A stretch of 64,000 nucleotides of DNA from Nitrospirota bacterium. GTDB lineage: Bacteria; Nitrospirota; UBA9217. The translations under genes and the position numbers were made by a program. This document shows, piece after piece, positions 2,654 to 21,734 of this stretch. The notes under the pieces are model-generated. The model did not search any database. It was not told the origin of the DNA and worked only from the letters and a program-made list of their open reading frames with translations. The stretch lies in contig DASPSR010000020.1 of the NCBI GenBank assembly GCA_035623825.1, forward strand, positions 81,978 through 145,977, in the 5' to 3' direction. The stretch's first letter is position 1; every line of letters begins with the position of its first letter.

Positions 2654-2703
2654 ATATATATTCCCCCGTTGCTCCTGAACTACAATAGATAATAATCGAT
2701 AAA

Positions 2704-2732: not shown

Positions 2733-2882
2733 GTGAATTTTCCTGATGTTCCTGGTATGATCTCATGGTATTCCAAATGTTAAACAGTCTTGATTTTGCG
2801 TTCGAAGAATGCTATGGTATTTATGCATGCTCAGAAACTTATTCCTATCTTCGTCCCCTGGCTAAAAGGAGAAAAAATCTCC

Positions 2883-3635: not shown

Positions 3636-3715
3636 AAGACGTTTCCGTTAGGAAGCGGTTTACAGCATTCTTGTGTCGAAATGTGCAGAATTCAACAATG
3701 ATCGGACGGACGCTC

Positions 3716-4624: not shown

Positions 4625-4646
4625 AGATCCCGCCGATCTCTCTCCC

Positions 4647-4689
4647 TATGATGTGCATCATAGGCTCTTCCCTACGTTAATGATACAGT
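4647..4689 (+). promoter_or_regulatory. CRP/FNR-like box TATGA-N6-TCATA (4647-4662) with extended -10 TGaTACAGT
   Basis: CCTATGA-tgtgca-TCATAGG palindrome; -10 hexamer at 4684-4689, 21 nt downstream. Confidence 0.75.
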
Positions 4690-4735
4690 GTGTCAAAGAA
4701 GATCCATAACAAGATGAACAAGGAGGGAAAATATC

Positions 4736-5050
4736 ATGGAGGTGCTCGATCTCAAGAAGTTGATGAAGTTCAACCCTGACAAGATATCACGAGAAATGCT
4801 GTCCGACAAGCCCGAGATGCGCGTCGCGCTCATGTGCTTGAGCCCTGGCCAGAAGCTTGAGCCCCACAAGGCGCCGTTGCGACTCATGATGTACTGCGTC
4901 GAAGGAACGGGGACTTTCACCGTTGGTGAAGAGAAAATCGAGGCGGACGAGAAAACCTGCATCCTGTGCGATCCGTCGGTGCCGCATGGTTTTGAGGCGA
5001 ATAAGGGCCAGAAACTCGTCGTCATGGCGGTTGTGACACCGGTGGATTGA
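4736..5050 (+). CDS. Cupin domain protein
   Basis: LSPGQKLEPH...YCVEGTGTFTVG...PHGF cupin motifs; AGGAGG SD. Confidence 0.85.
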   Translation: MEVLDLKKLMKFNPDKISREMLSDKPEMRVALMCLSPGQKLEPHKAPLRLMMYCVEGTGTFTVGEEKIEADEKTCILCDPSVPHGFEANKGQKLVVMAVVTPVD

Positions 5051-5105
5051 AACAGAAGAATATATTATAAGCGGTCTGAATCAAGATACACATCAACGGA
5101 ACAAT

Positions 5106-5135
5106 AAAAACGCCCTCACTTCCAAGTGAGGGCGT
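5106..5135 (-). terminator. Intrinsic terminator with U-tract on the minus strand (may be bidirectional)
   Basis: Perfect inverted repeat ACGCCCTCACT/AGTGAGGGCGT preceded by AAAAA on +. Confidence 0.65.
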
Positions 5136-5341
5136 GCTCTCAAAGGGCAGCGCCGCTATGATCGACGCCCCTTTCATGTATTTTCTCCTCCCGCATTCCA
5201 CGGATGCATGAAATGTCTCGTGACAAACCAATAAAGTCAACCCTCGATGGTGGTGCATAATTATGCAACTGCATGCTACTTTCGCATTATTGAACTGTAA
5301 ACCGGATTTCTTCACTTCGATATAATTTCTTTTACAACTCG

Positions 5342-5384
5342 TATGACATGCATCATACCAGAAAATTGCGTTTTGGATTATGCT
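5342..5384 (+). promoter_or_regulatory. CRP/FNR-like box TATGA-N6-TCATA (5342-5357) with -10 TATGCT; norCB promoter
   Basis: GTATGA-catgca-TCATAC; -10 at 5379-5384, 21 nt downstream. Confidence 0.78.
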
Positions 5385-5424
5385 TTTCCCGTTACTGGCA
5401 AAAATCCAAACCAAGGAGGTGCGT

Positions 5425-6108
5425 ATGGGAAATAAAGCAGCGAGGAATCTCTTTATCATTGGCAGTCTCTTCTTCTTCGTGGTCTTCCTTGCCCTCACAG
5501 TCGACACACTGGGGAAACTCGACAAACGGGCACCGGAAATCACGCAAGCAGTTGACGACGGCAAAATGGTATGGCACAAGTACGATTGCATCGGATGCCA
5601 TACCATTCTCGGGAACGGGACCTATTTCGCTCCCGACCTGACCAAGGTAGCTGCTCGTAAGCCGAAAAGCTACCTTAAGCAGTTCATCATGGACCCCAAA
5701 GGAGTAAAGGGAGACGCGGTGATGCCCACTCTTGGGATCAGCTCCACCGAAGCTGACAACCTTCTGGCTTTTCTCGACTGGATGTCCAAGGTCGACACGA
5801 ACGGTTGGCCTCCCAAACCGATACTTGCAACGGCCGCTGGCGTCGGGGGAAAAGAGCTGACTGCCGGACAACTGGTGTACCAGGCGCAGGGCTGCTCCAA
5901 CTGCCATTCCATCAGCGGCATCGGCGGGACCTCTGGACCGGACCTGACGAAGGTAGGGAGCAGGCGCGATCGTGACTGGTTAATCGGCCATTTCAAGGAC
6001 CCGCAGAAATATGTGAAGAATTCCGCGATGCCGCCGGTCACTGCCTCTAATGAGGAGATCGACCAACTCACAGCATACATGCTTACACTCAAGGAGGCGA
6101 CAAAATGA
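5425..6108 (+). CDS. norC: Nitric oxide reductase cytochrome c subunit NorC, diheme variant
   Basis: N-terminal TM; GKMVWHKYDCIGCHTILGNGTYFAPDLT NorC signature; second CSNCH domain; AAGGAGG SD; overlaps norB. Confidence 0.9.
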   Translation: MGNKAARNLFIIGSLFFFVVFLALTVDTLGKLDKRAPEITQAVDDGKMVWHKYDCIGCHTILGNGTYFAPDLTKVAARKPKSYLKQFIMDPKGVKGDAVMPTLGISSTEADNLLAFLDWMSKVDTNGWPPKPILATAAGVGGKELTAGQLVYQAQGCSNCHSISGIGGTSGPDLTKVGSRRDRDWLIGHFKDPQKYVKNSAMPPVTASNEEIDQLTAYMLTLKEATK

Positions 6109-7496
6109 CAATGAAATATAAAAGTCAAAGGATCGCGCAGTACTTTTACACCTTCGCGATCCTGCTGTTCCTCGTGCAGGTGCTCGTCGGCCTTATCGGC
6201 GCCCTCGAGTTCATATGGCCGAACTTCTTCTTCCTGAAGTTTCACATCATCAAGACGCTCCATGTGAATGCGCTCGTGATCTGGCTCCTCGCCGGTCTCA
6301 TGGGGGCGACCTACTATGTGGTTCCCGAGGAATCGGAAACGGAACTCTGGAGCTATCCTCTTGCCTTGTTTCAGTTCTGGGCAACGGTCGTTACCGTGAC
6401 CTTGGTGGTGATCGGCTATATATGGATGGGTTTCGACCCCCAGGCGAATAAGACGGTGTTCGGCACTCTGATACTGAACGAAGGCCGCGAGTATATCGAG
6501 GCCCCGCGCTGGGCGGACATTCTCATCGTGGTCTCGGTGCTTCTGTTCCTGTTCAACAACTTCATGACCATGTTCAAAACCAAGAAATGGACCGGAATTC
6601 AGGGCACGCTCCTGGGCGGCCTCGTGTTTTTGGCACTCATGTATCTGCCGGGCATGGTCTATACCAAGAGCATGGTCAAGGACCAGTTCTGGTGGTGGTG
6701 GGTGGTCCATCTCTGGGTAGAGGGCGCATGGGAGGTCATCGCGGGCGCCTTGCTCGCATTCATGCTGATGAAGGTGATCGGCGCGAAGCGTGAAGTGCTT
6801 GAAAAATGGATGTACATTGAGGTGGGCCTCGTAATGTTCACGGGTCTTTTAGGCACCGGCCATCACTATTACTGGATCGGAACGCCGGGATACTGGCTCT
6901 GGGTCGGCGGAATCTTCAGTTCCCTGGAACCCCTTCCCTTGCTCCTAATGGTCTGGGATGCGTTCAGGACGACTAGGGAGGCGCGGCAGGTCACGAACCG
7001 TGCCGGACTGTACTATACCGTGGCGCACGCGATCTTCAATTTCGTGGGCGCGGGCCTCTGGGGTGTGATCCACACCCTCCCACAGGTGAATAAGTGGACG
7101 CACGGCACGCAGATCACCGCGGCACACGGCCACCTCGCGTTCTACGGGGCCTATGTGCTTCTGGTGATGTCCATGATCTATGTGACCCTTCCGGCGATCC
7201 GGGGAGTGAAAGAGTACGATCCGGGAAGAGCCTTTGCGTCTTTCTGGTGGATGACGATCTCAATGATATTCATGGTGTTCGTGCTCACCGGGGCAGGAAT
7301 GGTGCAGGTCTACATGGAGCGGCTCATGGGGCTCGACTATGAGGCCGTGAAGGCGAATTACAATCTCTGGTTCTGGGTCTTCCGTGCGGTCTTCGGCGCC
7401 GGGTTCCTTGTGGGCGTCGCCATCTTCGTCGTCGACTACTTCAAGCTCGGCGGGGAAGCGGCCCCTGCGCTTCAGACGGCAACGGACCGCGGTTGA
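6105..7496 (+). CDS. norB: Nitric oxide reductase catalytic subunit NorB (cNOR)
   Basis: WWWVVHLWVEG, GTGHHYYWIG, SSLEPLP, AHGHLAFYG, GREYIE motifs. Confidence 0.95.
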   Translation: MTMKYKSQRIAQYFYTFAILLFLVQVLVGLIGALEFIWPNFFFLKFHIIKTLHVNALVIWLLAGLMGATYYVVPEESETELWSYPLALFQFWATVVTVTLVVIGYIWMGFDPQANKTVFGTLILNEGREYIEAPRWADILIVVSVLLFLFNNFMTMFKTKKWTGIQGTLLGGLVFLALMYLPGMVYTKSMVKDQFWWWWVVHLWVEGAWEVIAGALLAFMLMKVIGAKREVLEKWMYIEVGLVMFTGLLGTGHHYYWIGTPGYWLWVGGIFSSLEPLPLLLMVWDAFRTTREARQVTNRAGLYYTVAHAIFNFVGAGLWGVIHTLPQVNKWTHGTQITAAHGHLAFYGAYVLLVMSMIYVTLPAIRGVKEYDPGRAFASFWWMTISMIFMVFVLTGAGMVQVYMERLMGLDYEAVKANYNLWFWVFRAVFGAGFLVGVAIFVVDYFKLGGEAAPALQTATDRG

Positions 7497-7526
7497 TATC
7501 TGCCCGGTAATTGTGATAAAATTAAG

Positions 7527-7554
7527 AGGACGGCGATATGCCGTCCTTTTTTTT
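7527..7554 (+). terminator. Rho-independent terminator after norB
   Basis: AGGACGGC-gatat-GCCGTCCT followed by a T run. Confidence 0.85.
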
Positions 7555-7761
7555 GCGTGAAGCGTTGATGGCGGAGACGCTTTTGGACTAATGTCGCTCA
7601 TCATGGTAACAATCCGCATTCCAGAAGGACAACATATCGCTTCAATCTTCAAAGGGGCATGATGGACACGGATGTTTGATGCGGCGGATATTCTTTATTG
7701 AAACTTTCTATGTTGACGGCGGGCCAGGATAACGATATCGGACAGATAACCTCATCTCATT

Positions 7762-7790
7762 TTGCAAGCGAGGCATCATTTTGCTATAAT
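7762..7790 (+). promoter_or_regulatory. Sigma70-type promoter
   Basis: TTGCAA-17 nt-TATAAT with TG extension. Confidence 0.55.
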
Positions 7791-7833
7791 TCCCATATTG
7801 GCTTAATTACATAGTCATACCTGATATTGCACT

Positions 7834-8637
7834 GTGCCAATCATTATGAACAATTCCCTATACCTTTTTCTGCGAACTGCGCTATTCATATTGGCCTCCT
7901 GCCTGTTGATCATCGGATATGGATTCTGGCAAAGGGCTGCTTGGGCCCTTGCACTCTGGCCGTGGCCGGATGGCCCCTTGAGTTATCTATTCATTTCATC
8001 CATGCTTCTCGCAGAAGGAGCCACCATGACGTGGGTTTGCGTTACGATGGAACTCAACGCGGTCCGTGGTGGATCGCTCGGATTTGCTGCCATGAATGCC
8101 GGCATTTCTGTTTTTACCGGCTACCTTTACGGTCAACGCCACCAATCGCTGCTGACGGCTTGGACAATCGTTTGTGGAGTCCTAGCCATCGGTGCGCTGG
8201 TCCTCTTCGTTATGGGCGCCAAATATGAACGCCGCGATGTCCGCCCTTCGCCGCCTGTCGTGCGAACCTCCTTCTTAGTCTTTTCAGTCGCGCTTTTCAC
8301 CGCGACAGCAATGCTGCTTGCGAGAAGGCCTATTGTTTTCCCTTGGCCGCTCAAACCCGACAGTTCGGTTATGTTTGGTTTCCTGTTTCTGGCCTCGGCT
8401 ATTTACTTCTTTGACGGTTGGCTGCGGCCAAGCGCGGCCAACGCCTCTGGACAACTTCTGGGTTTCCTCGTTTACGATATTGTTCTTATCCCCCCCTATC
8501 TTCATCATTGGAGCAAGACACTAGGAGGATTTCGTGTCAGTTTGGTGATTTACCTCATCGTCCTTTTCTGGAGCGCAGCTCTTGCGCTCTGGTTTTGGTT
8601 TAAATACGGACTCGTCAAGCATATAAAAAACCTGTGA
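7834..8637 (+). CDS. Hypothetical polytopic membrane protein (internal duplication of WPW motif)
   Basis: About 8 hydrophobic segments; LWPWP and FPWPL in the two halves; start may be ATG 7846. Confidence 0.7.
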   Translation: MPIIMNNSLYLFLRTALFILASCLLIIGYGFWQRAAWALALWPWPDGPLSYLFISSMLLAEGATMTWVCVTMELNAVRGGSLGFAAMNAGISVFTGYLYGQRHQSLLTAWTIVCGVLAIGALVLFVMGAKYERRDVRPSPPVVRTSFLVFSVALFTATAMLLARRPIVFPWPLKPDSSVMFGFLFLASAIYFFDGWLRPSAANASGQLLGFLVYDIVLIPPYLHHWSKTLGGFRVSLVIYLIVLFWSAALALWFWFKYGLVKHIKNL

Positions 8638-8851
8638 CCAATCACGAGGCCTCGCAATAATTGGCCGAATAAGGCATAGCTTGATCCGCTTCGGGGCGAC
8701 ACATCTGGAGAAAACATCTGAAATTATGCTATTAACTTATCATGATCTTATGCTATCCCATTGTGTGGCCAGATTTCCATTAATTTTAACTAGAACCACT
8801 CAAGGTAACGGTGAATCCATCGGCATTTCCCATTCGTACGCATATAGAGCG

Positions 8852-8894
8852 TATGACCTGAATCATATTCATTTTTCTCTGCATGTACTATAAA
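8852..8894 (+). promoter_or_regulatory. CRP/FNR-like box TATGA-N6-TCATA (8852-8867) with -10 TATAAA
   Basis: TATGA-cctgaa-TCATA; -10 at 8889-8894, 21 nt downstream. Confidence 0.72.
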
Positions 8895-8900
8895 TCCAGT

Positions 8901-9830
8901 ATGAAGACGGCCACCTTAACCACATATCGAAGGATCACCCAGGTGCTCTTTATCCTGTTTATCTTCCTCATGCCCGTATTGAACATATTCCGGTATGACA
9001 CGACAACCCATGAGCTGATCCTATTCGGAAACGTCTGGGGTCTCGGCCTTCGAGAGGGCTTCTCTTCCGACCATAGCATGGCCGGCTCGCTCCACATCCT
9101 GGTCCAATTTTTCTTAAAGGCGATCCTTCCCTGGCTCTTCATCCTGGCGATCTTTCCCCTTCTCGGCTATTTCACGGGAAGGTTCTTCTGCGGTTGGCTC
9201 TGTCCTGAAGGTGCTCTGTTCGAACTGTCCGATTTCCTGACCCTCAAGCTCCTCAACAGAAGAAGCCCGTACGGAAGGAGACCGAACGACCCGGAGGTGA
9301 CTTGCACGAACAAGATAGGATACGGGTTGATTGCGCTCGCATGCGCAACGGTCATCCCTGTCCTCGGAGGTGTGGCACTCACCGGTTATTTCGTTGCCTC
9401 GAAGACCATCTGGCACCAGATCTCGACCTGGAGCTTCACCTTCGGCGTCAAGGCAGGCATCATCGGCGTTTCTATCTACATGCTCATCACTTCGATATTC
9501 GTTCGACACGTCCTGTGCCGATTTGTCTGCGCCGCCGGACTTATGCAGATGCTGTTAGGCTGGATCAGCCCCGTCTCGCTCCGGCTCAGGATGGACGCGG
9601 CCCGGATATCAGCCTGCACTGACTGCAAGGGCTGCGACAAGGCGTGCTTCATGAATGTTACCCCGAGAAAGAACAAGCGGGACATCTCGTGCGTGAACTG
9701 CGGGGCGTGCATCGAAGCGTGCAACAGAGAACTCGGCGAAGGAAAAGGTCTGTTCCATTTTGAATTTGGCGACGGATATGCTTCACCTCACAAAAAAACC
9801 GCGGGGATATTTCAACCGAAGAACACTTAA
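8901..9830 (+). CDS. Membrane-bound 4Fe-4S ferredoxin (NapH/CcoG-like)
   Basis: GRFFCGWLCPEG, CRFVC, CTDCKGCDKAC, CVNCGACIEAC plus TM helices; start 8901 chosen from promoter position (track gives 8883). Confidence 0.85.
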   Translation: MKTATLTTYRRITQVLFILFIFLMPVLNIFRYDTTTHELILFGNVWGLGLREGFSSDHSMAGSLHILVQFFLKAILPWLFILAIFPLLGYFTGRFFCGWLCPEGALFELSDFLTLKLLNRRSPYGRRPNDPEVTCTNKIGYGLIALACATVIPVLGGVALTGYFVASKTIWHQISTWSFTFGVKAGIIGVSIYMLITSIFVRHVLCRFVCAAGLMQMLLGWISPVSLRLRMDAARISACTDCKGCDKACFMNVTPRKNKRDISCVNCGACIEACNRELGEGKGLFHFEFGDGYASPHKKTAGIFQPKNT

Positions 9831-10109
9831 GACCGTGACAGAATTCTCGTCAAGTTCCAAAAACCATTTCCAATCAGACCCTATCGAACCTTTCTTGGAC
9901 TCTGTGGGTAAAACGGTATCCCACTCCATGGAAACCATTTACTGCCTTGTTATGTCAAAAAACTTCTAAATTCGTGCTACAATTACTCCATACGCATTTC
10001 TCTGATCGAAATTCTTCATCATAATTCGCATGTTAGCTGCATGTTCGTGTCGACAAAATGCGTTTTTTTGCAACTCTCGTCATCCTGCATCAGGAGAAGG
10101 TAAAACCGC

Positions 10110-10137
10110 TTGACAATCACCTGATATATGGTAAATT
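10110..10137 (+). promoter_or_regulatory. Sigma70-type promoter for prx-rrf2-cco
   Basis: TTGACA-16 nt-TAAATT with TG extension. Confidence 0.55.
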
Positions 10138-10180
10138 AAGGTCTTAAATATCCTATATAGTAACGAAGGAGGACAACATC

Positions 10181-10792
10181 ATGTCTAGTGAATGCTGTGG
10201 TATTCGGGTCGGCCAGACGGTGCCGGATTTCAAGCTTGAGACCTATGATCCCTCGAAGGGCGATTTCAGCGAGATCAGCCTCGCCGCGCAGAAAGCGGCA
10301 AAAAAATGGACGGTTCTTTTCTTCTACCCTGCCGATTTCACTTTTGTTTGAGCGACGGAATTTGCTGCTCTGGCGGAGCAGTATGAAGCATTCAAAAAAG
10401 CCGGTGCCGAGGTGATTACTGTAAGCACCGATACCAAATTCGTCCACCTCGCATGGCAACGTGACGAGAAAATGCTCGAAAAAGTCAAATATCCCATGGG
10501 CTCTGATACTACCGGCAAACTGTCGCGATCATTCGGCGTCTATGATGAGGAGACAGGTCTTGCGCTGAGAGGGACGTTCATCATAAACCCTGATGGTGTT
10601 CTGCGCAACTCAGAAGTTAATTATTACAATCTCGGCAGGAACATCGAAGAAATGTTGCGGAAGGTCAACGCGAACATTCACCTCGCAGCAAACCCCGTTG
10701 AAGCTTGCCCAGCCCAGTGGAAGAAGGAAGGTGACAAGACACTGAAACCCTCCGCTAAAATGGTCGGCAAGGTGTATGAGGCGTTGAAGTAA
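10181..10792 (+). CDS. prxU: Selenocysteine-containing peroxiredoxin (AhpC/Prx1 type), 203 aa, Sec at codon 57 (TGA 10349-10351)
   Basis: AGGAGG SD and ATG 10181; FFYPADFTFV-TGA-ATE aligns with FYPxDFTFVCPTE; frame continues into track ORF 10412..10792 with resolving ACPAQW. Confidence 0.93.
10352..10383 (+). promoter_or_regulatory. Bacterial SECIS hairpin
   Basis: Stem TGCTGCTC (10363-10370)/GAGCAGTA (10376-10383), G-containing loop TGGCG starting about 20 nt after the UGA. Confidence 0.75.
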
Positions 10793-10796
10793 AAGT

Positions 10797-11216
10797 ATGC
10801 TGGTGACCAGAGAAACGGATTACGCAGTGCGCACGGTTCTTTACCTGGCGCGCGACGGCAGCCGCTTGGCCAGCGTTACAGAAATCGCTCATGCCATGCA
10901 CATCCCCAAGAGCTTTCTCGCCAAACTGCTCCAACGGCTCGTACGAAGCCACATCCTGACGTCCATGCGCGGCGTTAACGGCGGCTTTCAACTGGCCCAA
11001 AAGCCGTCCGAAATCACACTCCTGTCCATCATGGAGGCCGTTCAGGGGCCCGCCGGGATCAATGTTTGTGCCATCGATAGCAAGCTGTGCAAACTAAGTT
11101 CGACCTGCTCTGTCCATCCTGTCTGGGTTGAAATCCGAAAGGAGGTGGAAAGACGCCTCAAGAGGGCAACGATTGCTAACCTATTGGCAGATAGAAATTA
11201 TTTAAAGAAAAAATAG
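10797..11216 (+). CDS. Rrf2-family transcriptional regulator with three Cys (Fe-S type)
   Basis: TRETDYAVR, RGVNGGFQL, C-X6-C-X5-C. Confidence 0.92.
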   Translation: MLVTRETDYAVRTVLYLARDGSRLASVTEIAHAMHIPKSFLAKLLQRLVRSHILTSMRGVNGGFQLAQKPSEITLLSIMEAVQGPAGINVCAIDSKLCKLSSTCSVHPVWVEIRKEVERRLKRATIANLLADRNYLKKK

Positions 11217-11249
11217 GACTATGAATGTCATGAACAAGGAGGCAATAGT

Positions 11250-12650
11250 ATGAGCGATTATCAATACGATAATCAGACGGTAAAAGGTTTTATCGTCTCC
11301 TCGATCTTCTGGGGAGTTGTCGGGATCGTGATCGGGCTCTGGATCTCGGTACAGATGTGGATGCCGTCGCTGAACTTCCCGCCCTATTTTACCTTCGGAC
11401 GGCTCAGAGTGGTGCATACGAACGGGCTCGCCTTCGGGCTCGGGATCGGCGCGATATTCGGGATTTCCTACTATATCATAATGCGGCTCACGAAGCGACC
11501 TCTCCTCTTCCCGAAACTCGCACGGTTCCACCTCTGGTTCTTCAACGTCGCCATCCTGCTCGCGGCGCTCAGCCTCCTTGCAGGCATGAACCAGTCGAAT
11601 GAATACGCAGAGCTGGAATGGCCGCTTGACATCGCCGTCGTCATCCTCTGGGTCATCTTTGCCGTCAACGTCTTCGGCACGATCATCAAGCGAAAAGAAG
11701 AGCAAATGTACATTTCTCTGTGGTATATCCTCGCGACGACTGTCGCCGTCGCCGTTCTGTATATCGTGAACAATCTCTCGATCCCCGCGGGCTGGAATAA
11801 ATCCTACCATCTCTTTGCGGGCGTCAACAGCGCCAATGTAGAGTGGTGGTACGGACACAATGCGGTAGGATTCATTTTTACGACGCCGATTCTCGCAATG
11901 TTCTATTATTTCCTGCCGAAGTCCACGGGCCTGCCGATTTACAGCCACCGCCTTTCCATCATAGCTTTCTGGTCGCTCGTGTTTGCCTATCTCTGGACAG
12001 GAGCGCACCACTTGGTCTATACGCCTCTGCCCGACTGGATCCAAACCCTCGGGATCGCCTTTACCATCTTCCTGATCGCTCCGTCCTGGGGCTCGGTAGT
12101 GAACGGTTACTATACGGTCGGTAATGACTGGTCGAAGATGCAGACGAACTACCTTACCAAGTTCTTCATCCTCGGTATCACCTTCTATGGCCTGCAAACG
12201 GTCCAGGGTCCGACACAGGGACTGCGTGTCGTCAGCCAGTTGATCCACTTCACCGACTGGGTCCCCGGCCATGTGCACATGGGCACCATGGGATGGGTGA
12301 CCATGACCGCTGCCGCATCGATGTACTACATCATCCCGAAGATCTACAACACGTCGATCTACAGCGAGAAGATCGCGAACATCCATTTCTGGCTCGTGCT
12401 GATCGGGCAGCTCATATTCTCGATCACCATGTGGATCACGGGGATCATGCAGGGTGCCCTCTGGAAAGCGACGAACCCCGATGGAAGCCTTAAGTATACG
12501 TTCGTAGAGGTAGTAGCGAAGAACTATCCATTCTGGAAAATGAGAACGCTCGGGGGCGTGATCTTCACGGTCGGCATGCTCTTTTTTATCTACAATATCT
12601 ATATGACCATGCGCAAAGGCAAGCTTGAGCTTGCCGAAGCGAAGGCATAG
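11250..12650 (+). CDS. ccoN: cbb3-type cytochrome c oxidase subunit I
   Basis: FGRLRVVHTN, EYAELEW, WWYGHNAVGF, WTGAHHL, WVPGHVHMG. Confidence 0.96.
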   Translation: MSDYQYDNQTVKGFIVSSIFWGVVGIVIGLWISVQMWMPSLNFPPYFTFGRLRVVHTNGLAFGLGIGAIFGISYYIIMRLTKRPLLFPKLARFHLWFFNVAILLAALSLLAGMNQSNEYAELEWPLDIAVVILWVIFAVNVFGTIIKRKEEQMYISLWYILATTVAVAVLYIVNNLSIPAGWNKSYHLFAGVNSANVEWWYGHNAVGFIFTTPILAMFYYFLPKSTGLPIYSHRLSIIAFWSLVFAYLWTGAHHLVYTPLPDWIQTLGIAFTIFLIAPSWGSVVNGYYTVGNDWSKMQTNYLTKFFILGITFYGLQTVQGPTQGLRVVSQLIHFTDWVPGHVHMGTMGWVTMTAAASMYYIIPKIYNTSIYSEKIANIHFWLVLIGQLIFSITMWITGIMQGALWKATNPDGSLKYTFVEVVAKNYPFWKMRTLGGVIFTVGMLFFIYNIYMTMRKGKLELAEAKA

Positions 12651-12661
12651 GGGGTGATAAC

Positions 12662-13246
12662 ATGGCAGATGCTCTCTATAAGAAACCGATATTGTTCGCT
12701 ATCGTCGCGGCAGTCGTCATCCTGATCGGGACCGCTGTGACCATGTTCATTCCGATGCTGACGCCGGAAATGCATCCGAAACTGGCGAACCTCAAGCCCT
12801 ACACAGCGCTCCAGCTCGCCGGCAAGGACATCTACCAGCGGGAAGGCTGCAATAACTGCCACACCCAGACGGTGCGACCTCTGAAGACCGAGGTCATGCG
12901 GTATGGCGAATACTCGAAAGCGGGGGAATTCGCCTACGACCGGCCTTTCCTCTGGGGTTCAAAGCGCACCGGTCCCGACCTGGCACGCATCGGCGGGAAA
13001 TATCCCGATCAGTGGCACGAGATACACTTCGATAATCCGCAGGCCATGTACGCGGAGTCCAACATGCCCGCCTACGGTTGGTTGAAGCAAAACAAGCTCG
13101 ATCCATCGGACATCGAAGCCCACATGAAGGCAAATGATTTCCCGTACACGCGCGATGAACTCGCACAGCTCAAGGACAAGACTGAGCTTGATGCGCTGAT
13201 CGCGTACCTCCAGGTAATCGGCACGGCAGTCACCAAGGCGAAATGA
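12662..13246 (+). CDS. ccoO: cbb3-type cytochrome c oxidase subunit II
   Basis: REGCNNCHTQ, WGSKRTGPDLARIGGKY, SNMPAY. Confidence 0.96.
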   Translation: MADALYKKPILFAIVAAVVILIGTAVTMFIPMLTPEMHPKLANLKPYTALQLAGKDIYQREGCNNCHTQTVRPLKTEVMRYGEYSKAGEFAYDRPFLWGSKRTGPDLARIGGKYPDQWHEIHFDNPQAMYAESNMPAYGWLKQNKLDPSDIEAHMKANDFPYTRDELAQLKDKTELDALIAYLQVIGTAVTKAK

Positions 13247-13266
13247 CAGAGAGGAGGAATATTAAA

Positions 13267-13458
13267 ATGGCGGAACAATCGGACAACGATAATATCGAGG
13301 CATTCGAATCAAAAGAGACGGGACGTCGCATTCCCCTCGGATGGCAGCTGTTGTTCTGGGGCCTGATCCTCTGGGGCATTTACTACGTCGCCGCGCATAC
13401 GCCGGCCATTAGCGGATGGTCACAGGAGCGCGCGTACACGGAATCATTGAAGCCGTAA
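13267..13458 (+). CDS. CcoP/FixP N-terminal domain-only protein (no heme motif)
   Basis: IPLGWQLLFWGLILWGIYY resembles the FixP_N helix; AGGAGG SD; follows ccoO. Confidence 0.75.
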   Translation: MAEQSDNDNIEAFESKETGRRIPLGWQLLFWGLILWGIYYVAAHTPAISGWSQERAYTESLKP

Positions 13459-13547
13459 CCCCCCTGGAGCCGGAGGATTTCAGTCGCTATGGCGCGGCCC
13501 CGGCTCCGCTTTCACCCCTTGCAACAAAAAAATCAGGGAGGTGTTTT

Positions 13548-13649
13548 ATGGATATATCTGTTGCTGCAACAATCGGTTTTACCACAACTGCGGTGATCGG
13601 CATCATTGTGCTCTACTTTTCCGTCAGAAAAAGAAAAAACAGCAGGTAG
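13548..13649 (+). CDS. 33-aa single-TM microprotein in the cco operon
   Basis: GGGAGG SD; MDISVAATIGFTTTAVIGIIVLYFSVRKRKNSR. Confidence 0.65.
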   Translation: MDISVAATIGFTTTAVIGIIVLYFSVRKRKNSR

Positions 13650-13802
13650 TCAGTTCCGAGCGAATTGCAAAGATTGGAAGTAAGCATCGCTGAGGCCAAA
13701 AGGCATCAAGGATAGCCTTTCAAAACCCCTATGAGCCTTGCGAGAAAGCTTCCTGGTGCTGACGCTTGACCGGACCAATTTGGAGAAAGTTGAGGCAATC
13801 TC

Positions 13803-13946
13803 ATGGAAAAGCAAGCATGGGCATATATCGTGTTCGGGCTCGTCCTGGTAGTGCTCTTCGTGATCATTATCGTGCATTATTATTCCAGGAAGCGGCACAA
13901 AAAGGTTGAAGAAATAAAGTATAAAATGCTGGATGACGATGAGTAA
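13803..13946 (+). CDS. ccoQ: CcoQ-like small subunit (47 aa); absent from ORF track
   Basis: MEKQAWAYIVFGLVLVVLFVIIIVHYYSRKRHKKVEEIKYKMLDDDE: one TM, basic patch, acidic tail; overlaps ccoG start. Confidence 0.75.
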   Translation: MEKQAWAYIVFGLVLVVLFVIIIVHYYSRKRHKKVEEIKYKMLDDDE

Positions 13947-15153
13947 GAAGTTCCACAGACTCAGGCGATTTTCCGGAGCAGTTCTTCTCTTGTTTCTTAT
14001 CGGTGTCCCCTTTCTGCGGATGCACGGAGAGAGCGCCTTTCGGTTCGATATCCCGTCACTCCGGCTTTTATTCTTCGGAACCAATATATGGCTGGCCGAC
14101 TTTTTCATCATCCTGGTCGCCGTCATCTTCCTGACCTTCCTGATCATTTTCACAACGACCGTCTTCGGGAGACTGTGGTGCGGCTGGCTGTGTCCGCAGA
14201 CCGTTCTGGTCGATACTACAACTTTCGTGGCAGCGGCCTGGGAACGGGGGCATGCCGCCAGAGCCGTCGCCGCTTCTGCGGGTCTCACGGTGAGCGCGGT
14301 CATTGCCGCAAGCCTGATCGGATATTTTGTATCGCCCTATGATATTCCATCTCTGCTCCGGACCGGCGGCACACCCGCGAAGATAGTACTAGGCTCCTGG
14401 CTTGCGCTTTCAGTGATCATGTTTCTTGATCTGATCGCGCTACGGAGAGGTTTTTGCGCAACGGTCTGCCCCTATGCGAAACTTCAGAGCGTTCTGTTCG
14501 ACGATAGGACGCTCGTAGTCGCATTCGATTCCCGTCGAGCTGACGAGTGCATGCAGTGCAATGCCTGCGTGCAGGCCTGCCCCGTCGGAATCGACGTCAG
14601 GAGAGGCTCTCAAATGGCCTGTATCCACTGTGCCGAGTGTGTGGACGCCTGCACGGAGCGGATGGCCCGGCGTGACCGGAAATCGCTTGTCCAGTACAGC
14701 TTCGGACTTCCTGGTCAACGGGGCGTCGGCGTACGCGTGAACCCTCTGATGACCGGCGTCATCACCGCGATTTCACTTGTGCTTCTTGTTTATCTTTCCT
14801 TGTCGCGAATGCCCTTCGATGTGAGCGTTCGTCTGAACTATGCCGATGCGCCAGGGATGCGGTCAAACGGAAGCGTCACAAATTCATACATCCTATCGCT
14901 CAGGAACATGGGGACGTCCGATCTTGAAATCGATGTGAGTGCAGCCGCTTCGGCAGGGTCGGTCCTGGTGTCCCCTGACGTCGTGTTGCTCAAAAGAGGT
15001 ACGGACATCACGAGAGTGCCGGTCTCGGTGACCCTGAACGGCGCATCAGGCGAAGAAAAGCATCCCTTGATGATCACTCTGACCGTCGGATCGAAACAGG
15101 TCAATAAGAAAATCACGAAAATTGTGTACTTCATGATGCCGAACAAAAATTAA
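13939..15153 (+). CDS. ccoG: CcoG/FixG/RdxA 4Fe-4S accessory protein
   Basis: GRLWCGWLCPQT, FCATVCPYAKLQS, CMQCNACVQACP, CIHCAECVDAC, C-terminal Ig-like domain. Confidence 0.9.
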   Translation: MSKKFHRLRRFSGAVLLLFLIGVPFLRMHGESAFRFDIPSLRLLFFGTNIWLADFFIILVAVIFLTFLIIFTTTVFGRLWCGWLCPQTVLVDTTTFVAAAWERGHAARAVAASAGLTVSAVIAASLIGYFVSPYDIPSLLRTGGTPAKIVLGSWLALSVIMFLDLIALRRGFCATVCPYAKLQSVLFDDRTLVVAFDSRRADECMQCNACVQACPVGIDVRRGSQMACIHCAECVDACTERMARRDRKSLVQYSFGLPGQRGVGVRVNPLMTGVITAISLVLLVYLSLSRMPFDVSVRLNYADAPGMRSNGSVTNSYILSLRNMGTSDLEIDVSAAASAGSVLVSPDVVLLKRGTDITRVPVSVTLNGASGEEKHPLMITLTVGSKQVNKKITKIVYFMMPNKN

Positions 15154-15164
15154 AGGGCCAGAAC

Positions 15165-16084: not shown

Positions 16085-16085
16085 C

Positions 16086-16763
16086 GTGGAGACGGGATTT
16101 CTACTAGCGCTCACGACCGGCGTTCTGGGAGGCTTTGGCCATTGTATCGGCATGTGCGGCCCCCTCGTGGCGTCATATGCACTTGCGCGGGATGCGGAGC
16201 CTCGGCCGATCTTCATCCGGCTTGCCCCGCACCTGCTCTATAATCTGGGCCGCATGACCACCTACGGACTCATCGGCGCTATCATGGGGCTTTCGGGATC
16301 ATTCGTCAATGTCGCCGGCAGGCTTACCGGCGTCCAGAACGTCGTTGCCGTCGCTGCCGGCGTCATGATGGTCTTCATGGGACTGAGCATCGCCGGCGTA
16401 GGAGGCACGACGGCATGGATCGAGAAACATAATCTCCCTGTCCTCCGTGCGGCGCAGCAGGTCCTCGCCTCGTCTTCAATGCTTCGCTACTATCCGCTCG
16501 GTCTCCTCCTCGGGTTGCTCCCCTGCGGCCTGTCATACACAGTCTTCATTGCGTCCGCCGGGACCGGCGGCTTGGTTTCTGGAATGCTGACCGCCCTGCT
16601 GTTCGGACTCGGTACAGTGCCTGCACTCCTCGCCTTCGGGGCGGTCATGTCCTCTCTCCGGGCAGCCCTCCGTAACACGATCTACAGGACAAGCGGAGCG
16701 ATCGTCATGATCATGGGGATCTATTTTCTATTCAGAGGTCTAAAGCCCTATGCCAACCTGTGA
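16086..16763 (+). CDS. DsbD_2/TauE-like membrane protein (oxidase copper-handling accessory)
   Basis: GHCIGMCGP, YNLGR, GLLPCGLSY, FGLGTVP. Confidence 0.88.
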   Translation: METGFLLALTTGVLGGFGHCIGMCGPLVASYALARDAEPRPIFIRLAPHLLYNLGRMTTYGLIGAIMGLSGSFVNVAGRLTGVQNVVAVAAGVMMVFMGLSIAGVGGTTAWIEKHNLPVLRAAQQVLASSSMLRYYPLGLLLGLLPCGLSYTVFIASAGTGGLVSGMLTALLFGLGTVPALLAFGAVMSSLRAALRNTIYRTSGAIVMIMGIYFLFRGLKPYANL

Positions 16764-19203
16764 TCACTGCATGCTCACGGTGTCCGAACGCAATGCCGTG
16801 TTCGATTACATAGACGGCAGGCGAAAGGTCTTCTGCTGCCACGGGTGCAGCGGGATCTACAGGATCATTCACAGCGAGGGGCTTGACGAGTTCTACGCAA
16901 AAAGACGGGAGTGGACCCCGGGACCAGCGGAAGACAAGGCCGTGGACGTATCTGCCTTCTTGGACGGTCTGAGGCCCGTAGGCCGCGAGATCGAAACGGA
17001 CGTCATCGTCGACGGCATCCGGTGCGCGTCCTGCGTCTGGCTGAATGAGAAGTTACTGCTCCGGACGGAGGGGGTCTCGTACGCCAATGTGAATTATGCC
17101 ACGCATCGGGCGAAGATCCGCTGGAACCCGGAAGAGATAGACATCGGCTCCATTCTCGCGCGCATCAAGTCCATCGGCTATGTCCCTAAACCGTTCCTTC
17201 CCAATGCCTGGGAGGACGAGCAGAAAAAGCAGGCCCGTGACCTGCTCATCCGCTTCGGCACCGCATCCTTTTTCTCCATGCAGCTCATGCTGTTCTCCAT
17301 CGCCCTGTATGCGGGGTATTTCCAGGGAATCGATGAGAGGATCAAACTTTTCTTCCATCTGATCTCTTGTGCGCTCACGACACCGGTTCTGTTCTATTCG
17401 GGCTGGCCGATCATCCGGGGATCCTTGCGGGGTTTGAAGAATCTCACGTTCAACATGGATGTCCTGATCGCGGCGGGTTCCGTTTCCGCGTACGCCTACA
17501 GCATCTACCAGATGGCGGCCGGCGGCGAGGTCTATTTCGATACCGCGGCCATGATCGTCACCCTCATTCTGCTCGGCAGATACATCGAAGTAGGCGCCAA
17601 GGGAAAAGCGTCCGAAACCATCGGCAGGCTTATGCAACTCAGCCCCAAGGAAGCCCGGAAGCTGGAGATATCTCCGGACCAGGTTCGATCAATTGACCGG
17701 CTCCACCGCGCAGCTCGTCTGATGGTACCCGTATCGTCTCTGCGTCCGGGAGACATAATTGAAGTTGTTCCCGGAGAGAAGATTCCTGCGGACGGCGTCG
17801 TGGTTACAGGGTCGTCGGAAGCGGACGAATCCATGCTTACCGGGGAATCGAGGCCTTCGCCGAAGACCGATGGAGCGTTGATATTCGGCGGCACGCTCAA
17901 CCTTTACGGAAGCTTTGTATTCCAGGTCACCAAGACAGGCAAGGACACGGTGCTTGCGCAGATCATCCAGGCCGTCGAGGACGCCCAGGCGCGCCGTGCC
18001 CCGATCCAGGCCGTCGCCGATCGCGTCGTCGGTTCCTTCGTGCCCGCGGTTCTGCTCATCGCCTTGCTGACTTTCCTCGGATGGCTCTATCATGGCACTG
18101 CGGCGTCGCGCGCGGTGATGAATGCGGTCTCGGTCATGGTGATCGCCTGCCCCTGTGCACTCGGACTTGCCACGCCACTTGCTATCCTGATCGGCACGTC
18201 CTATGGAGCATCTAGGGGAATACTCATAAAAGGCGGGGATGTGATCGAGAAGGCGGCATCCGTTGATTTTGCCGTGTTGGACAAAACGGGGACCATAACC
18301 GAGGGGAGGCCCGTGCTGAGCGAAACTTTTGGCGTAGGGATACCAGACAGCGAGGCACTCCGGCTTGCACTGTCCCTCGAACGACGTTCAGAGCATTCCC
18401 TGGGCAAGGCAATCGTCGAAGCGGCGGGGGGGCTTGACCCGTTCGAGGTTGCTGATTTTTCCGTAGTCCCCGGCAAAGGAATCCAGGGGATGATTCTCGG
18501 GAAACCGGCGCTCATCGGCAGCAGAGAGTTCATCGAATCCCATGGCATTTACGGCAACATTGACGCCGCCCTGGACAATGAGAAACGATCGGGTCTGGTC
18601 GAAGCGGAGAAGACAGGGGCCACGATCATCTTTCTGTGCTATGATCTAAGGGTGCGAGGAGCCTTCGTGGTTTCCGACAAAGTCAGGGTTGAGGCGGCGG
18701 AGACCATAGCTATGCTCAAGAATGCCAGGCTCGGCGTGGCCATGGTAACGGGCGACAACCTCAATACAGCTGTGGCCGTGGCAAAAAAAACCGTGATCGA
18801 TTCCGTGAAAGCGCGGGTATCGCCAATGGAAAAGGCTGATGAAATTCGACGCATGAAGAATGAAGGAAAGCACGTTCTTATGGCGGGGGACGGTATCAAC
18901 GACGCTCCAGCGCTCGTACAGGCCACGGTTGGCGTTGCCATGGGGCGTGCGACGGACATCGCTCTCGAGAGCGCGGACATCGTCATCATGCGCTCCGATC
19001 TCAGACTGGTCGCTGACGCCGTAGCGCTCTCCAAAAAGACCTTCAGGGTCATCCGCCAGAACATCTTCTGGGCATTCTTTTATAATATCGTTTTCATCCC
19101 CCTGGCCATACTCGGCATCCTTCACCCGATCATGGCAGCCGGCTCCATGGCTTTCAGTTCGCTCTCGGTGGTCGGAAATTCCCTGCGTGCGAGGATACGC
19201 TGA
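16750..19203 (+). CDS. ccoI: P1B-type copper ATPase CcoI/FixI
   Basis: CDHC..FCCHGC, CASC, TGES, ACPCALGLATP, DKTGT, GDGINDAP. Confidence 0.93.
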   Translation: MPTCDHCMLTVSERNAVFDYIDGRRKVFCCHGCSGIYRIIHSEGLDEFYAKRREWTPGPAEDKAVDVSAFLDGLRPVGREIETDVIVDGIRCASCVWLNEKLLLRTEGVSYANVNYATHRAKIRWNPEEIDIGSILARIKSIGYVPKPFLPNAWEDEQKKQARDLLIRFGTASFFSMQLMLFSIALYAGYFQGIDERIKLFFHLISCALTTPVLFYSGWPIIRGSLRGLKNLTFNMDVLIAAGSVSAYAYSIYQMAAGGEVYFDTAAMIVTLILLGRYIEVGAKGKASETIGRLMQLSPKEARKLEISPDQVRSIDRLHRAARLMVPVSSLRPGDIIEVVPGEKIPADGVVVTGSSEADESMLTGESRPSPKTDGALIFGGTLNLYGSFVFQVTKTGKDTVLAQIIQAVEDAQARRAPIQAVADRVVGSFVPAVLLIALLTFLGWLYHGTAASRAVMNAVSVMVIACPCALGLATPLAILIGTSYGASRGILIKGGDVIEKAASVDFAVLDKTGTITEGRPVLSETFGVGIPDSEALRLALSLERRSEHSLGKAIVEAAGGLDPFEVADFSVVPGKGIQGMILGKPALIGSREFIESHGIYGNIDAALDNEKRSGLVEAEKTGATIIFLCYDLRVRGAFVVSDKVRVEAAETIAMLKNARLGVAMVTGDNLNTAVAVAKKTVIDSVKARVSPMEKADEIRRMKNEGKHVLMAGDGINDAPALVQATVGVAMGRATDIALESADIVIMRSDLRLVADAVALSKKTFRVIRQNIFWAFFYNIVFIPLAILGILHPIMAAGSMAFSSLSVVGNSLRARIR

Positions 19204-19388
19204 TGTGGAGCGTGTTTCTTCTGATATTCCTTACGCTCTGCGCCGGTTTCGCCGGGTGGATGTTCTTTCTCTGGGCGGTCAAGAGCGGGCAGTACGATGA
19301 TATCGAAGGACCGAAGTATCGGATGCTCGAGGATGAGGAAAAAGAAAAAAGAAAAGATGAAGGGAAAAAAGAAGGAAAAGAAGATTGA
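19203..19388 (+). CDS. ccoS: cbb3 oxidase maturation protein CcoS
   Basis: FLWAVKSGQYDDIEGP signature. Confidence 0.92.
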   Translation: MWSVFLLIFLTLCAGFAGWMFFLWAVKSGQYDDIEGPKYRMLEDEEKEKRKDEGKKEGKED

Positions 19389-19414
19389 TCTGCCGCAATT
19401 CGGAAGTGTCTCAA

Positions 19415-19960
19415 TTACACCCAGTACTCCGGATATTTTCTGCTCTTCGAAAGATTGTTCACGAGCAGGGCGATAACCAGCAGCACAGCGGCGCCCGTAC
19501 CTGCGGGAATGAAAGCATAGAGGAAACCGAGGTTGTGAATTTTTGCTCCGCCGATGACAGCGATGAGCGCCGTCGCTCCTCCGGGCGGGTGGAGCGTTTT
19601 GGTGACTAGCATGACGACGATGGCCACGGAAACGGCCATCGCTGCTGCCACCCAGATGGTGTTGCCGAACAGCTGATAGCATGCAACGCCTGCAAGGCCT
19701 GAGAGCACGTGTCCTCCGATGAGGTTTCTCGGCTGGGCCAGCGGGCTTTTGATAGCACTGTACACAAGGACCGCCGAAGCGCCGAACGACCCGATGAGCA
19801 TCGTCATGTCTCGTGGTTCGAAGTACCACGATGAGAGATAACCGCACACACCGATGCCGAGCGCCGATCCAAGCCATGACCAGACCATTTCGATGATGCC
19901 GACGCCGGGCGGGCTCTTTGCACCGCCTTTCATCTTTGATAGATATTCAGCGATGGTCAT
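19415..19960 (-). CDS. HPP family membrane protein
   Basis: GSFGASAVL, SPLAQPRNLIGGH, LHPPGGATAL. Confidence 0.93.
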   Translation of the reverse strand: MTIAEYLSKMKGGAKSPPGVGIIEMVWSWLGSALGIGVCGYLSSWYFEPRDMTMLIGSFGASAVLVYSAIKSPLAQPRNLIGGHVLSGLAGVACYQLFGNTIWVAAAMAVSVAIVVMLVTKTLHPPGGATALIAVIGGAKIHNLGFLYAFIPAGTGAAVLLVIALLVNNLSKSRKYPEYWV

Positions 19961-20015
19961 GATATCCCATCCACAATAAGACGGTCTCCATGGCTTTCTT
20001 CTTCCGTCTTCCTCC

Positions 20016-20603
20016 TCACGGTTTCTTGCCTATCACCTTCAGGATATCAGCCCTCGAAATGATGCCGATGAGTTTGCCTTCGTCATCGACAACGGGAAGA
20101 CGCTTTATTCTCCGATCATCGAGTATCTGCGCCACTTCGACTATATCGTCATCGGCTTTACTGGTAATAGGAGGAAAGCCCATGACATCCCCGACCTTGT
20201 TCCCGCCTTTTTTGGCGGTTACGGGCTCGCCGAGGATATTGCGTAAAATATCCTTAAAGGTATGCTCCTTCTTCATTCCCGCAAGGATAAGGATATCCGC
20301 CTCGCTGACGACGCCTATCACGCGGTTATTATCATCGACCACGGGCATGCCGCTTATCCTGTTCTCCGACAGGAGCCTCGCCGCTTCGTGGAGGTCGGCG
20401 TCCCTTTTAATGGTGACCACCGTCCTCGTCATCACATCCCGGACGGGAACACGCGTTGCCAGACGCTCCTGAGCATGACGGAGTGCGATCTCAAAGATCT
20501 TCTTCAGATCCTCCTCGGTCACGTCCATATAGGTTTTCATTTCCAGGAGTGCCGCTCTGAGATCCTCTTCCGACACCCTGCATTGTTCCGGCTGATTATC
20601 CAT
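20016..20603 (-). CDS. CBS-pair protein with the N-terminal linker typical of HPP-CBS proteins
   Basis: ISGMPVVD and IKRLPVVD..GIISRAD; YMDVTEEDL; start 20603 after GAGG. Confidence 0.88.
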   Translation of the reverse strand: MDNQPEQCRVSEEDLRAALLEMKTYMDVTEEDLKKIFEIALRHAQERLATRVPVRDVMTRTVVTIKRDADLHEAARLLSENRISGMPVVDDNNRVIGVVSEADILILAGMKKEHTFKDILRNILGEPVTAKKGGNKVGDVMGFPPITSKADDDIVEVAQILDDRRIKRLPVVDDEGKLIGIISRADILKVIGKKP

Positions 20604-20626
20604 TCGTCCTCTCATGATATTGTCCG

Positions 20627-20669
20627 ATGATAACAGAACCACCAAAGACCTGGTATGACGAAAATCATA
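20627..20669 (-). promoter_or_regulatory. CRP/FNR-like box TATGA-N6-TCATA (20654-20669) with extended -10 TGtTATCAT; CBS-HPP promoter
   Basis: TATGA-cgaaaa-TCATA; minus-strand -10 at 20632-20627, 21 nt away. Confidence 0.75.
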
Positions 20670-21584: not shown

Positions 21585-21734
21585 AAAAGGCAATATCCTT
21601 ACTCTTTAGTATAGCATACTCACCGCTGCCGGAGTCGTATCCGCCTTCTCTCCTGCAAAAAAACAATATAAACGGGAGTAAACAGTGAACTATTCCTTAA
21701 TTACGCCTGTTCTGTCATCCAATCAAAAGATTTT

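Follow-up and report, generated by a model that had tools for sequence, protein, structure and literature searches.

Which regulator governs the nitric oxide (NO) reductase genes norCB in an uncultured Nitrospirota lineage, and which other genes share this control? The question is raised by a 64,000-nucleotide stretch of a Nitrospirota bacterium genome (contig DASPSR010000020.1, positions 81,978 to 145,977; hereafter the window, whose own numbering is used throughout), where the first-pass annotation had noticed four copies of the palindrome TATGA-N6-TCATA (hereafter the box, N6 being a spacer of six bases). One of them lies upstream of norCB, and it had been proposed that all four are sites of a CRP/FNR-like activator with a variant motif and that the three uncharacterised loci behind the other boxes also have a role in handling NO or nitrite. 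Our analysis points in the same direction: we think it probable that the boxes are the operators of a dimeric CRP/FNR activator encoded elsewhere, and that the genes behind them belong to an NO/nitrite regulon that includes norCB.

The motif scan found exactly four perfect matches in the 64 kb, at the positions already reported. They are box 1, TATGATGTGCATCATA, at 4647-4662 on the plus strand, the predicted activator site of a cupin promoter with its centre at -41.5; box 2, TATGACATGCATCATA, at 5342-5357 on the plus strand in the norCB promoter; box 3, TATGACCTGAATCATA, at 8852-8867 on the plus strand in the promoter of a NapH/FixG-like iron-sulfur membrane protein; and box 4, TATGATTTTCGTCATA in its minus-strand reading, at 20654-20669 in the promoter of the operon for a CBS-pair and an HPP protein. 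The first-pass annotation had estimated 0.06 chance matches per 64 kb, which is arithmetically right for a uniform base composition. In 100 dinucleotide-preserving shuffles of the window the mean was 0.02 perfect boxes and the maximum 1, so that none of the shuffles reached four. When one mismatch was allowed there were 8 sites versus 1.14 expected; the extra four (37366, 42808, 44383 and 62367) have no -10-like hexamer at the right distance, and therefore we treated them as chance matches. With up to two mismatches the window holds 41 sites, and not one of the mismatched sites has a TAnnnT hexamer at offsets 19-24 from the box end, where three of the four perfect boxes have it and box 3 has TATAAA at offset 21 instead.

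The labels given before to the four boxed units are backed by Pfam. Behind box 1 is the gene of a Cupin_2 protein of 104 amino acids (4736-5050, plus strand; Pfam Cupin_2 E = 3.5e-10), with the Shine-Dalgarno sequence AAGGAGG upstream. Box 2 precedes norC (5425-6108, plus strand), whose product has a second cytochrome c domain C-terminal to its NorC domain, and norB (6105-7496, plus strand); the pair encodes a cNOR-type nitric oxide reductase, and a strong terminator-like hairpin (7524-7550) comes after norB. The predicted NorB matches chain 3o0r_B of the solved Pseudomonas cNOR with E = 1.4e-114 (residues 2-448) and NorC matches 3o0r_C with E = 3e-29 (residues 5-131), and by this homology of both subunits norCB encodes a cNOR. 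NorC is 227 amino acids long, not about 150, the remainder being the second cytochrome c domain (Pfam Cytochrom_C, Cytochrome_CBB3). Box 3 is followed by the gene of a NapH/FixG-like polyferredoxin membrane protein of 309 amino acids (8901-9830, plus strand; Pfam Fer4_5 4.2e-10, and Fer4_18), which has NCBIfam matches to napH and ccoG under their cut-offs. On the minus strand, box 4 precedes the gene of the CBS-pair protein (20016-20603; Pfam CBS 4.3e-32; alternative ATG at 20615) and that of the HPP membrane protein (19415-19960; Pfam TM_HPP 3.3e-59), which probably form one operon. A role in nitrite transport has been reported for an HPP protein (Maeda 2014, cited in PMC7438415).

In order to know whether the box is kept outside this window, we collected relatives by a NorB scan with one genome per species, and took the best 80 of 119 confirmed loci (NorB identity 73-93%; up to 10 kb on either side of norB; 1.11 Mb in total). 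Nearly all of them are labelled as Nitrospirota, Nitrospirae or Thermodesulfovibrionales, including Candidatus Magnetobacterium and Candidatus Sulfobium. The perfect box occurs in 113 copies, in 67 of the 80 loci. Among all 1024 palindromes of the 5-N6-5 form, whose mean is 1.5 copies, it ranks first by a wide margin, and 29 control palindromes of the same composition average 0.97 copies and never exceed 7. The runner-up, TTCAT-N4-ATGAA / CTTCA-N6-TGAAG, with 52 instances, was rejected as a coding artefact inside norB: among the matches listed (25 of the 52), at least 18 lie at one fixed coding position of norB. Regarding the box itself, 72 different spacers occur among 117 boxes and the flanks are not conserved, which argues for selection on the two half-sites only.

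The motif is also present upstream of orthologs; its absence there was one of the outcomes by which the first-pass annotation would have been refuted. Searching the 300 nt upstream of each gene and tolerating one mismatch, we found a box for 55 of 62 norC orthologs (36 of them with a perfect box), for 39 of 40 orthologs of the NapH-like gene at 46% identity or more (32 perfect) and for 11 of 14 CBS orthologs. The control genes gave 1/70 for norB, 2/37 for a gene encoding a CopD-cytochrome b5 fusion membrane protein (CopD-b5), 2/14 for HPP, 0/3 for the peroxiredoxin gene prx, 0/2 for an Rrf2-family gene and 0/3 for ccoN. Upstream of cupin orthologs the box is perfect in loci L058 and L013 and has one mismatch in L001, and in L031 the NapH-like gene is followed in its operon by a Cupin_2 gene (109 amino acids). 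Gene order is identical to that of the window in L058, the closest relative (NorB 93% identical), where the cupin, norC and NapH-like genes each have a perfect box in front, with spacers that differ from those of the window. Furthermore, in three loci (L025 at 9247, L041 at 9247 and L072 at 6138) a single box is flanked on either side by a -10 hexamer at 21 nt and apparently serves both norC and, in the opposite direction, the CBS gene, and in L008 (9245) one box with two-sided -10 hexamers serves norC and HPP. The single norC/CBS boxes of the relatives thus tie the distant box 4 of the window to norCB.

The position of the boxes relative to the promoters is as regular as their sequence. The gap of 21 nt between box and -10 can be read for all four boxes of the window: TACAGT at 4684-4689 on the plus strand, with a predicted start near 4696, an A; TATGCT at 5379-5384 on the plus strand, with a predicted start near 5391; the -10-like TATAAA at 8889-8894 on the plus strand, for which the ATG at 8901 is the predicted +1; and TATCAT at 20627-20632 on the minus strand, with a predicted start near 20620. 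Three of these four hexamers fit TAnnnT, and TATAAA lacks the final T. Among the 117 boxes, TAnnnT starts 21 nt after the box end in 73 cases, 22 nt in 16 and 23 nt in 12, with counts of 1-11 at the offsets 10-20 and 24-34. A strict TAnnnT is found at offsets 20-23 in 83 of the 117, and the other 34 have, by eye, mostly TATAAA, TATTAA or nATAAT at the same place.

We then oriented 73 promoters and built a profile. The inner positions of the box are a pyrimidine in 71/73 and a purine in 72/73, which gives TATGAy-N4-rTCATA. There is a G at -14 in 39 promoters and an A 7 nt past the -10, that is at the predicted +1, in 45, and no -35 signal appears in the profile. A scan with the -35/-10 consensus picks up none of the four promoters of the window. 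From the fixed -10 spacing together with the enrichment in A 7 nt past the -10, the likely start is 41.5 bp downstream of the box centre; therefore, as far as starts can be predicted from sequence, the centring near -41.5 proposed before holds across the window and the relatives. A TGA-N6-TCA inverted repeat, a fixed distance to the -10 and a missing -35 are thus all found together, as is expected of a class II site to judge from the sequence. The NapH-like gene gives an independent check of the predicted start position, because an in-frame ATG lies on the predicted +1: in the window, as in 28 of the 39 boxed orthologs, it is found 33-35 nt past the end of the box. This pattern would imply a leaderless NapH-like mRNA that is conserved over many species.

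What is behind the boxes in the relatives suggests what the regulon is for. There the boxed genes include an NrfA-like cytochrome c552 (Pfam 1e-56), a protein of 70 amino acids with a DUF1858 domain and a weak similarity to ScdA_N, a hemerythrin-domain protein of 265 amino acids, a small NIR_SIR protein and RseC-like proteins. A Cys-rich protein of 152 amino acids without Pfam match is boxed in L031, L009 and L048; the protein atlas suggests for it the AF_0155 family of putative iron-sulfur oxidoreductases, which we take as a lead only. In single loci the box also faces a PAS histidine kinase gene or a GGDEF-EAL gene. The two most box-dense of the 80 loci are L031 (7 boxes) and L009 (5 boxes). 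In the L031 island (4853-14980), seven boxes lie within 9 kb behind a CRP/FNR gene, and the boxed units are a gene resembling a COX1 fragment, the 152-amino-acid protein, DUF1858, NrfA-like, norCB-copD/b5, NapH-like-cupin and CBS-HPP, whose CBS and HPP genes overlap. In the L009 island (788-10300) a CRP/FNR gene is followed by five boxes, and the units that L009 and L031 have in common behind their boxes are NrfA-like, DUF1858, norCB-copD/b5, NapH-like-cupin and CBS-HPP. The cNOR, the NrfA-like, DUF1858, hemerythrin and NIR_SIR targets and the nitrite-transport link of HPP together point to NO or nitrite handling as the theme of the regulon. The boxed NrfA-like, DUF1858, hemerythrin and NIR_SIR genes of the relatives also support the role in NO or nitrite handling that had been proposed for the three uncharacterised loci of the window.

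Regarding the regulator, the window does not supply it. The first-pass annotation had stated that none is encoded there, and neither Pfam searches of 84 open reading frames nor a six-frame tblastn with five CRP/FNR queries found a CRP/FNR transcription factor in the window. The sole tblastn match was a cyclic nucleotide-binding protein of 150 amino acids without a helix-turn-helix domain (34450-34902, minus strand). The stop codon of its gene overlaps the start of a Ppx/GppA phosphatase gene. We therefore looked for the regulator in the relatives, where 1228 open reading frames from the loci fell into 654 clusters, of which 192 representatives were submitted to Pfam: all 61 clusters with at least three members and without a representative among the window genes, and 131 smaller ones (170-290 amino acids). 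Among these 192, a single cluster of CRP/FNR factors (cNMP_binding plus HTH_Crp_2) was found. Its gene immediately adjoins boxed operons in all three loci that carry it (L031, L009 and L046), and this adjacency to clusters of boxes makes it the candidate regulator.

A search with the candidate gave 1479 relatives at E <= 1e-20. Of these, the best 120 are 68-100% identical to it and, where an organism is named, all come from Nitrospirota/Thermodesulfovibrionales; they are annotated just as 'Crp/Fnr family'. In 119 of these best 120 the recognition helix reads GTTVETSIR. Aligned with the Escherichia coli proteins (GLTVETISR in FNR, GCSRETVGR in CRP), the candidate keeps the V-E-T and the final R of FNR. 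In the same alignment it has no residues opposite the N-terminal extension of FNR and no equivalent cysteines. The residues of CRP that contact cyclic AMP are Glu72, Arg82 and Ser83, and opposite them the candidate has Gly and Tyr-Pro/Pro-Ala. Met119, Tyr120, Cys121 and His134 are nearly invariant in its relatives, and one might speculate that Met119-Tyr120-Cys121 or His134 bind a cofactor, perhaps haem. Against solved structures the best score is that of the Mycobacterium tuberculosis CRP (88.7 bits), and the Pseudomonas aeruginosa DNR (3dkw) scores 47 bits, under several CRPs. No NCBIfam equivalog cut-off is reached, and the protein atlas gives only generic Crp/Fnr names. The low DNR score and the lack of an equivalog mean that 'HcpR/Dnr-like', the term of the first-pass annotation, should be understood as describing a role and makes no claim of orthology.

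The helix may also account for the unusual base of the box. According to mutagenesis in which the specificities of FNR and CRP were swapped, the residue aligned with FNR Ser212 (CRP Gly184) helps to read the outer base of the site, and the candidate carries Ile there. Written in the register of FNR, the box is (T)ATGAy-N4-rTCAT(A), to be compared with TTGAT-N4-ATCAA, and the outer base corresponds to position 3 as counted in Rodionov 2005. That study reports that motif position 3 co-varies with residues of the recognition helix in this family (PMC1274295).

Taken together, the geometry, the ortholog boxes, the candidate gene and the regulon content support in silico the idea of a CRP/FNR-like activator with a variant motif. 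In the mechanism that we propose, the activator would be an ortholog of a Nitrospirota-specific CRP/FNR clade with the helix TVETSIR (TVETISR in E. coli FNR) and would bind the box once NO or nitrite is sensed. As the promoters have a -10, often with an upstream TG, and no -35, RNA polymerase would depend on the bound activator: the dimer on the box at -41.5 would recruit it by class II activation, and the promoters would fire only then. The regulon of this bacterium would comprise norCB, the leaderless NapH-like polyferredoxin, the small cupin and the CBS-HPP pair, the last perhaps being a gated nitrite channel; the relatives would add the NrfA-like nitrite reductase and the DUF1858/ScdA_N-like, hemerythrin and small NIR_SIR proteins. 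The output would be detoxification or respiration of NO and nitrite. What the sequences show is the boxes, their spacing, their conservation before orthologs of other species, the missing -35 and the gene content; the binding protein, the direction of the effect (activation) and the sensed signal are what we infer.

A wider claim can be put forward only tentatively, and we regard it as rather doubtful as a whole. It would combine a new DNA specificity of the clade (Ile in place of Ser or Gly in the helix, A in place of T or G at position 3), NO or nitrite sensing without the cysteine cluster of FNR and without cyclic AMP, and a new set of cNOR helper proteins. This set might consist of the leaderless NapH-like polyferredoxin, the CopD-cytochrome b5 fusion, the small cupin and the CBS-gated HPP nitrite channel. 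The 61 representatives of gene clusters that recur around norCB include no family of the NorD or NorQ type, and therefore these helpers might replace NorD, NorQ and NorE.

Several observations weigh against an NO- or nitrite-responsive CRP/FNR activator of this kind. No hcp gene, the hallmark target of HcpR, lies behind any box in the DNA examined, that is, downstream of 98 box sides in the window and within up to 10 kb on either side of norB in the relatives. The candidate regulator is found beside boxes in only 3 of the 80 loci, and an Rrf2-family gene is likewise found in three places, namely the window, L058 and L001. In none of its three loci does the candidate's own gene have a box upstream. 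We assume that this genome carries the regulator, which the window lacks. Furthermore, the candidate scores higher against the M. tuberculosis CRP than against DNR and reaches no equivalog cut-off, at least by these sequence comparisons, and the Ser/Ile residue of the helix is tied to the T-to-A base of the box through the mutagenesis work on FNR and CRP, for which a literature search found no relevant paper. Among the orthologs, 7 of 62 norC genes have boxes with two or more mismatches and just 2 of 5 cupin genes have a box of their own. Finally, the third -10 of the window, TATAAA, is without the last T that is usually conserved.

The same CRP/FNR class II architecture could also serve another signal, such as oxygen limitation or redox state, in which case the boxed genes would be a general set for anaerobic or microaerobic respiration. 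We consider this unlikely, even if CRP/FNR proteins sense many signals, the boxes of the window lie near a cbb3 oxidase cluster, the regulon includes the respiratory cNOR and NrfA-like proteins, and single boxes face the signalling genes mentioned above (PAS histidine kinase or GGDEF-EAL). The cbb3 genes are classic targets of FNR and FixK, but here they have no box, either in the window or before the ccoN orthologs of the relatives (0/3), and the candidate regulator is without the FNR cysteine cluster. Moreover, the DUF1858/ScdA_N-like, hemerythrin, NIR_SIR and NrfA-like targets are of the kinds found in nitrosative-stress regulons according to Rodionov 2005 (PMC1274295).

A second possibility is that the boxes are bound at about -42 by an activator of another family, of the LuxR/TraR type or a phage-repressor-like helix-turn-helix protein, and that the adjoining CRP/FNR gene is a coincidence. 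Families other than CRP/FNR can indeed activate from about -42, and we assigned the regulator by adjacency in three loci and by the shape of the motif. Nevertheless, the 192 representatives submitted to Pfam include no different regulator family that is repeatedly found next to the boxes, and the invariance of the recognition helix (119 of the best 120) parallels that of the motif. The TGA-N6-TCA core with its inner pyrimidine and purine is, moreover, the signature of CRP/FNR sites in Rodionov 2005 (PMC1274295), so that another family appears improbable.

Between boxes 3 and 4 lies an Rrf2-family regulator gene (10797-11216, plus strand; Pfam Rrf2 2e-34; Cys-x7-Cys-x5-Cys) that had been passed over in the first-pass annotation. 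It stands between a peroxiredoxin gene and ccoN, next to the cbb3 oxidase cluster of the window (ccoNO, fixGH and a copper ATPase). As it is inside the span of the boxes, we had to test whether its product is an NsrR-like iron-sulfur repressor that sits on the boxes and is released when NO damages its cluster. By NCBIfam the protein weakly resembles NsrR, IscR and RirA, in each case under the cut-off, and NsrR regulons have similar targets according to Rodionov 2005 (PMC1274295). However, a repressor needs neither a fixed -10 distance of 21 nt nor promoters without a -35, and the NsrR consensus given in the same study, gATGyAT-N5-ATrCATc, has 11 bases between ATG and CAT, where the box has 8. 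Furthermore, the order prx-rrf2-ccoN is also found in L058 and L001, with prx and ccoN unboxed, and the Rrf2 gene is missing from the box-dense L031 and L009, which have the CRP/FNR gene. We therefore rejected it as the regulator of the boxes on operator geometry, prx-ccoN synteny and absence from the box-dense loci; this role is very improbable, and the protein probably controls prx and/or the cbb3 oxidase genes.

That the boxes are non-regulatory, arising by chance or as remnants of small repeats, has practically no probability left, given their excess over shuffles and over all other palindromes, the same gene families being boxed in other species, and the conservation of the half-sites alone with 72 different spacers.

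Some neighbouring features deserve a comment in their own right. The peroxiredoxin gene beside rrf2 (10181-10792, plus strand) has one in-frame TGA (10349-10351) exactly at the peroxidatic cysteine (FTFV-U-ATE), and its L002 ortholog (76% identical) is uninterrupted, with a Cys at the TGA site; a 9-bp hairpin lies 14 nt past the TGA, with an ordinary folding energy (z = -0.33). As read from the sequence, this is probably a selenocysteine peroxiredoxin.

The distance from norB to box 3 is 1355 nt in the window (7497-8851) versus 255 nt in the syntenic L058. This segment also carries a sigma-70-like promoter (7761-7790) and an open reading frame of 267 codons (7834-8637) without Pfam match and without a homolog in any of the 80 loci, and it looks like a lineage-specific insertion. 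The CopD-cytochrome b5 fusion gene (3524-4624, plus strand) recurs in 38 loci. It lies directly 3' of norB in about 16 of 72 tallied loci, for instance L009 and L031, whereas in the window and in L058 it is upstream of the cupin box instead. Immediately upstream of box 4, and like CBS-HPP on the minus strand, is a gene that fuses a protoglobin domain to a PsiE membrane domain (20688-21593), and the order protoglobin-PsiE then CBS is also seen in L002; its product could be a haem-based gas-binding protein of the same theme. Between the cupin gene and norC, the minus strand has a promoter-like site (5301-5273) and a terminator-like hairpin with a T-run (5135-5110). The segment 5110-5301 could encode a small RNA of roughly 160 nt, for which there is no Rfam match; the Rfam and tRNA scans of the whole window gave zero matches.

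If the regulon is as proposed, the 16-bp box with its fixed promoter geometry would be a tool for mapping the NO/nitrite regulon in the genomes or metagenome-assembled genomes of this group. NorBC genes are widespread among Thermodesulfovibrionia, which are common in aquifers and sediments, according to PMC11033732. The regulon would also give a functional context to families without an assigned role, namely the NapH-like polyferredoxin, the small cupin, the CBS-HPP pair and the CopD-b5 fusion. It predicts a leaderless mRNA conserved in many species, and it offers a natural example of one CRP/FNR helix swap accompanying one changed base of the site, a residue-base link that can be tested. For experimental work, the consolidated islands of L031 and L009 would be the best loci. 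As a regulon signal from an uncultured lineage, the box is clean and unusually well conserved.

How does the proposed regulon compare with known systems? The literature that we searched has no paper with the TATGA-N6-TCATA motif, none that looked relevant by title or abstract among the listed papers that combine its half-sites with FNR, and nothing on the regulation of norCB in Thermodesulfovibrio/Thermodesulfovibrionia. The CRP/FNR activator proposed here is like E. coli FNR in the V-E-T and final R of the helix, in the inner site TGAy-N4-rTCA and in the class II geometry. It differs from FNR in the order of two residues before the final Arg (SI versus IS), in the N-terminal cluster cysteines, which are missing in the candidate, in the outer base (A versus T) and in the cbb3 genes, which are without a box here.

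In denitrifiers, DNR and NnrR are NO-responsive CRP/FNR activators of norCB that act from an FNR-like box near -41.5. Their box is of the FNR type, TTGAT-N4-ATCAA; the box of the window is not, and the candidate scores only 47 bits against the solved DNR. Both DNR and NnrR are named as regulators in Rodionov 2005 (PMC1274295). The NsrR regulons share the NO-stress theme, and the window does have an Rrf2 gene; NsrR, however, is a repressor whose operator has another half-site spacing (PMC1274295). No rule on the position of the -10 is expected for it.

HcpR, as described in Rodionov 2005 (PMC1274295), is the remaining comparison. Its regulons in delta-proteobacteria and cyanobacteria were likewise predicted by comparative genomics, for a CRP/FNR factor with a palindrome containing TGA. 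The targets also handle nitrite or NO (nrfHA, ferredoxin-like and hemerythrin-like genes, and norB in Synechocystis), and the motif also varies by lineage alongside the residues of the recognition helix. The consensi given there are wTGTGAnnnnnnTCACAw, wyTTGACnnnnGTCAArw and GTAACnnnnGTTAC; position 3 of our box is A, unlike in all three. No hcp lies behind a box in the DNA examined, and the likeness that we claim is one of role. The regulon content resembles the extended HcpR, NsrR and DNR regulons described in that source. The principle of a CRP/FNR factor that activates NO-detoxifying genes from -41.5 is already textbook knowledge, and what differs here is that this one would have a DNA specificity of its own.

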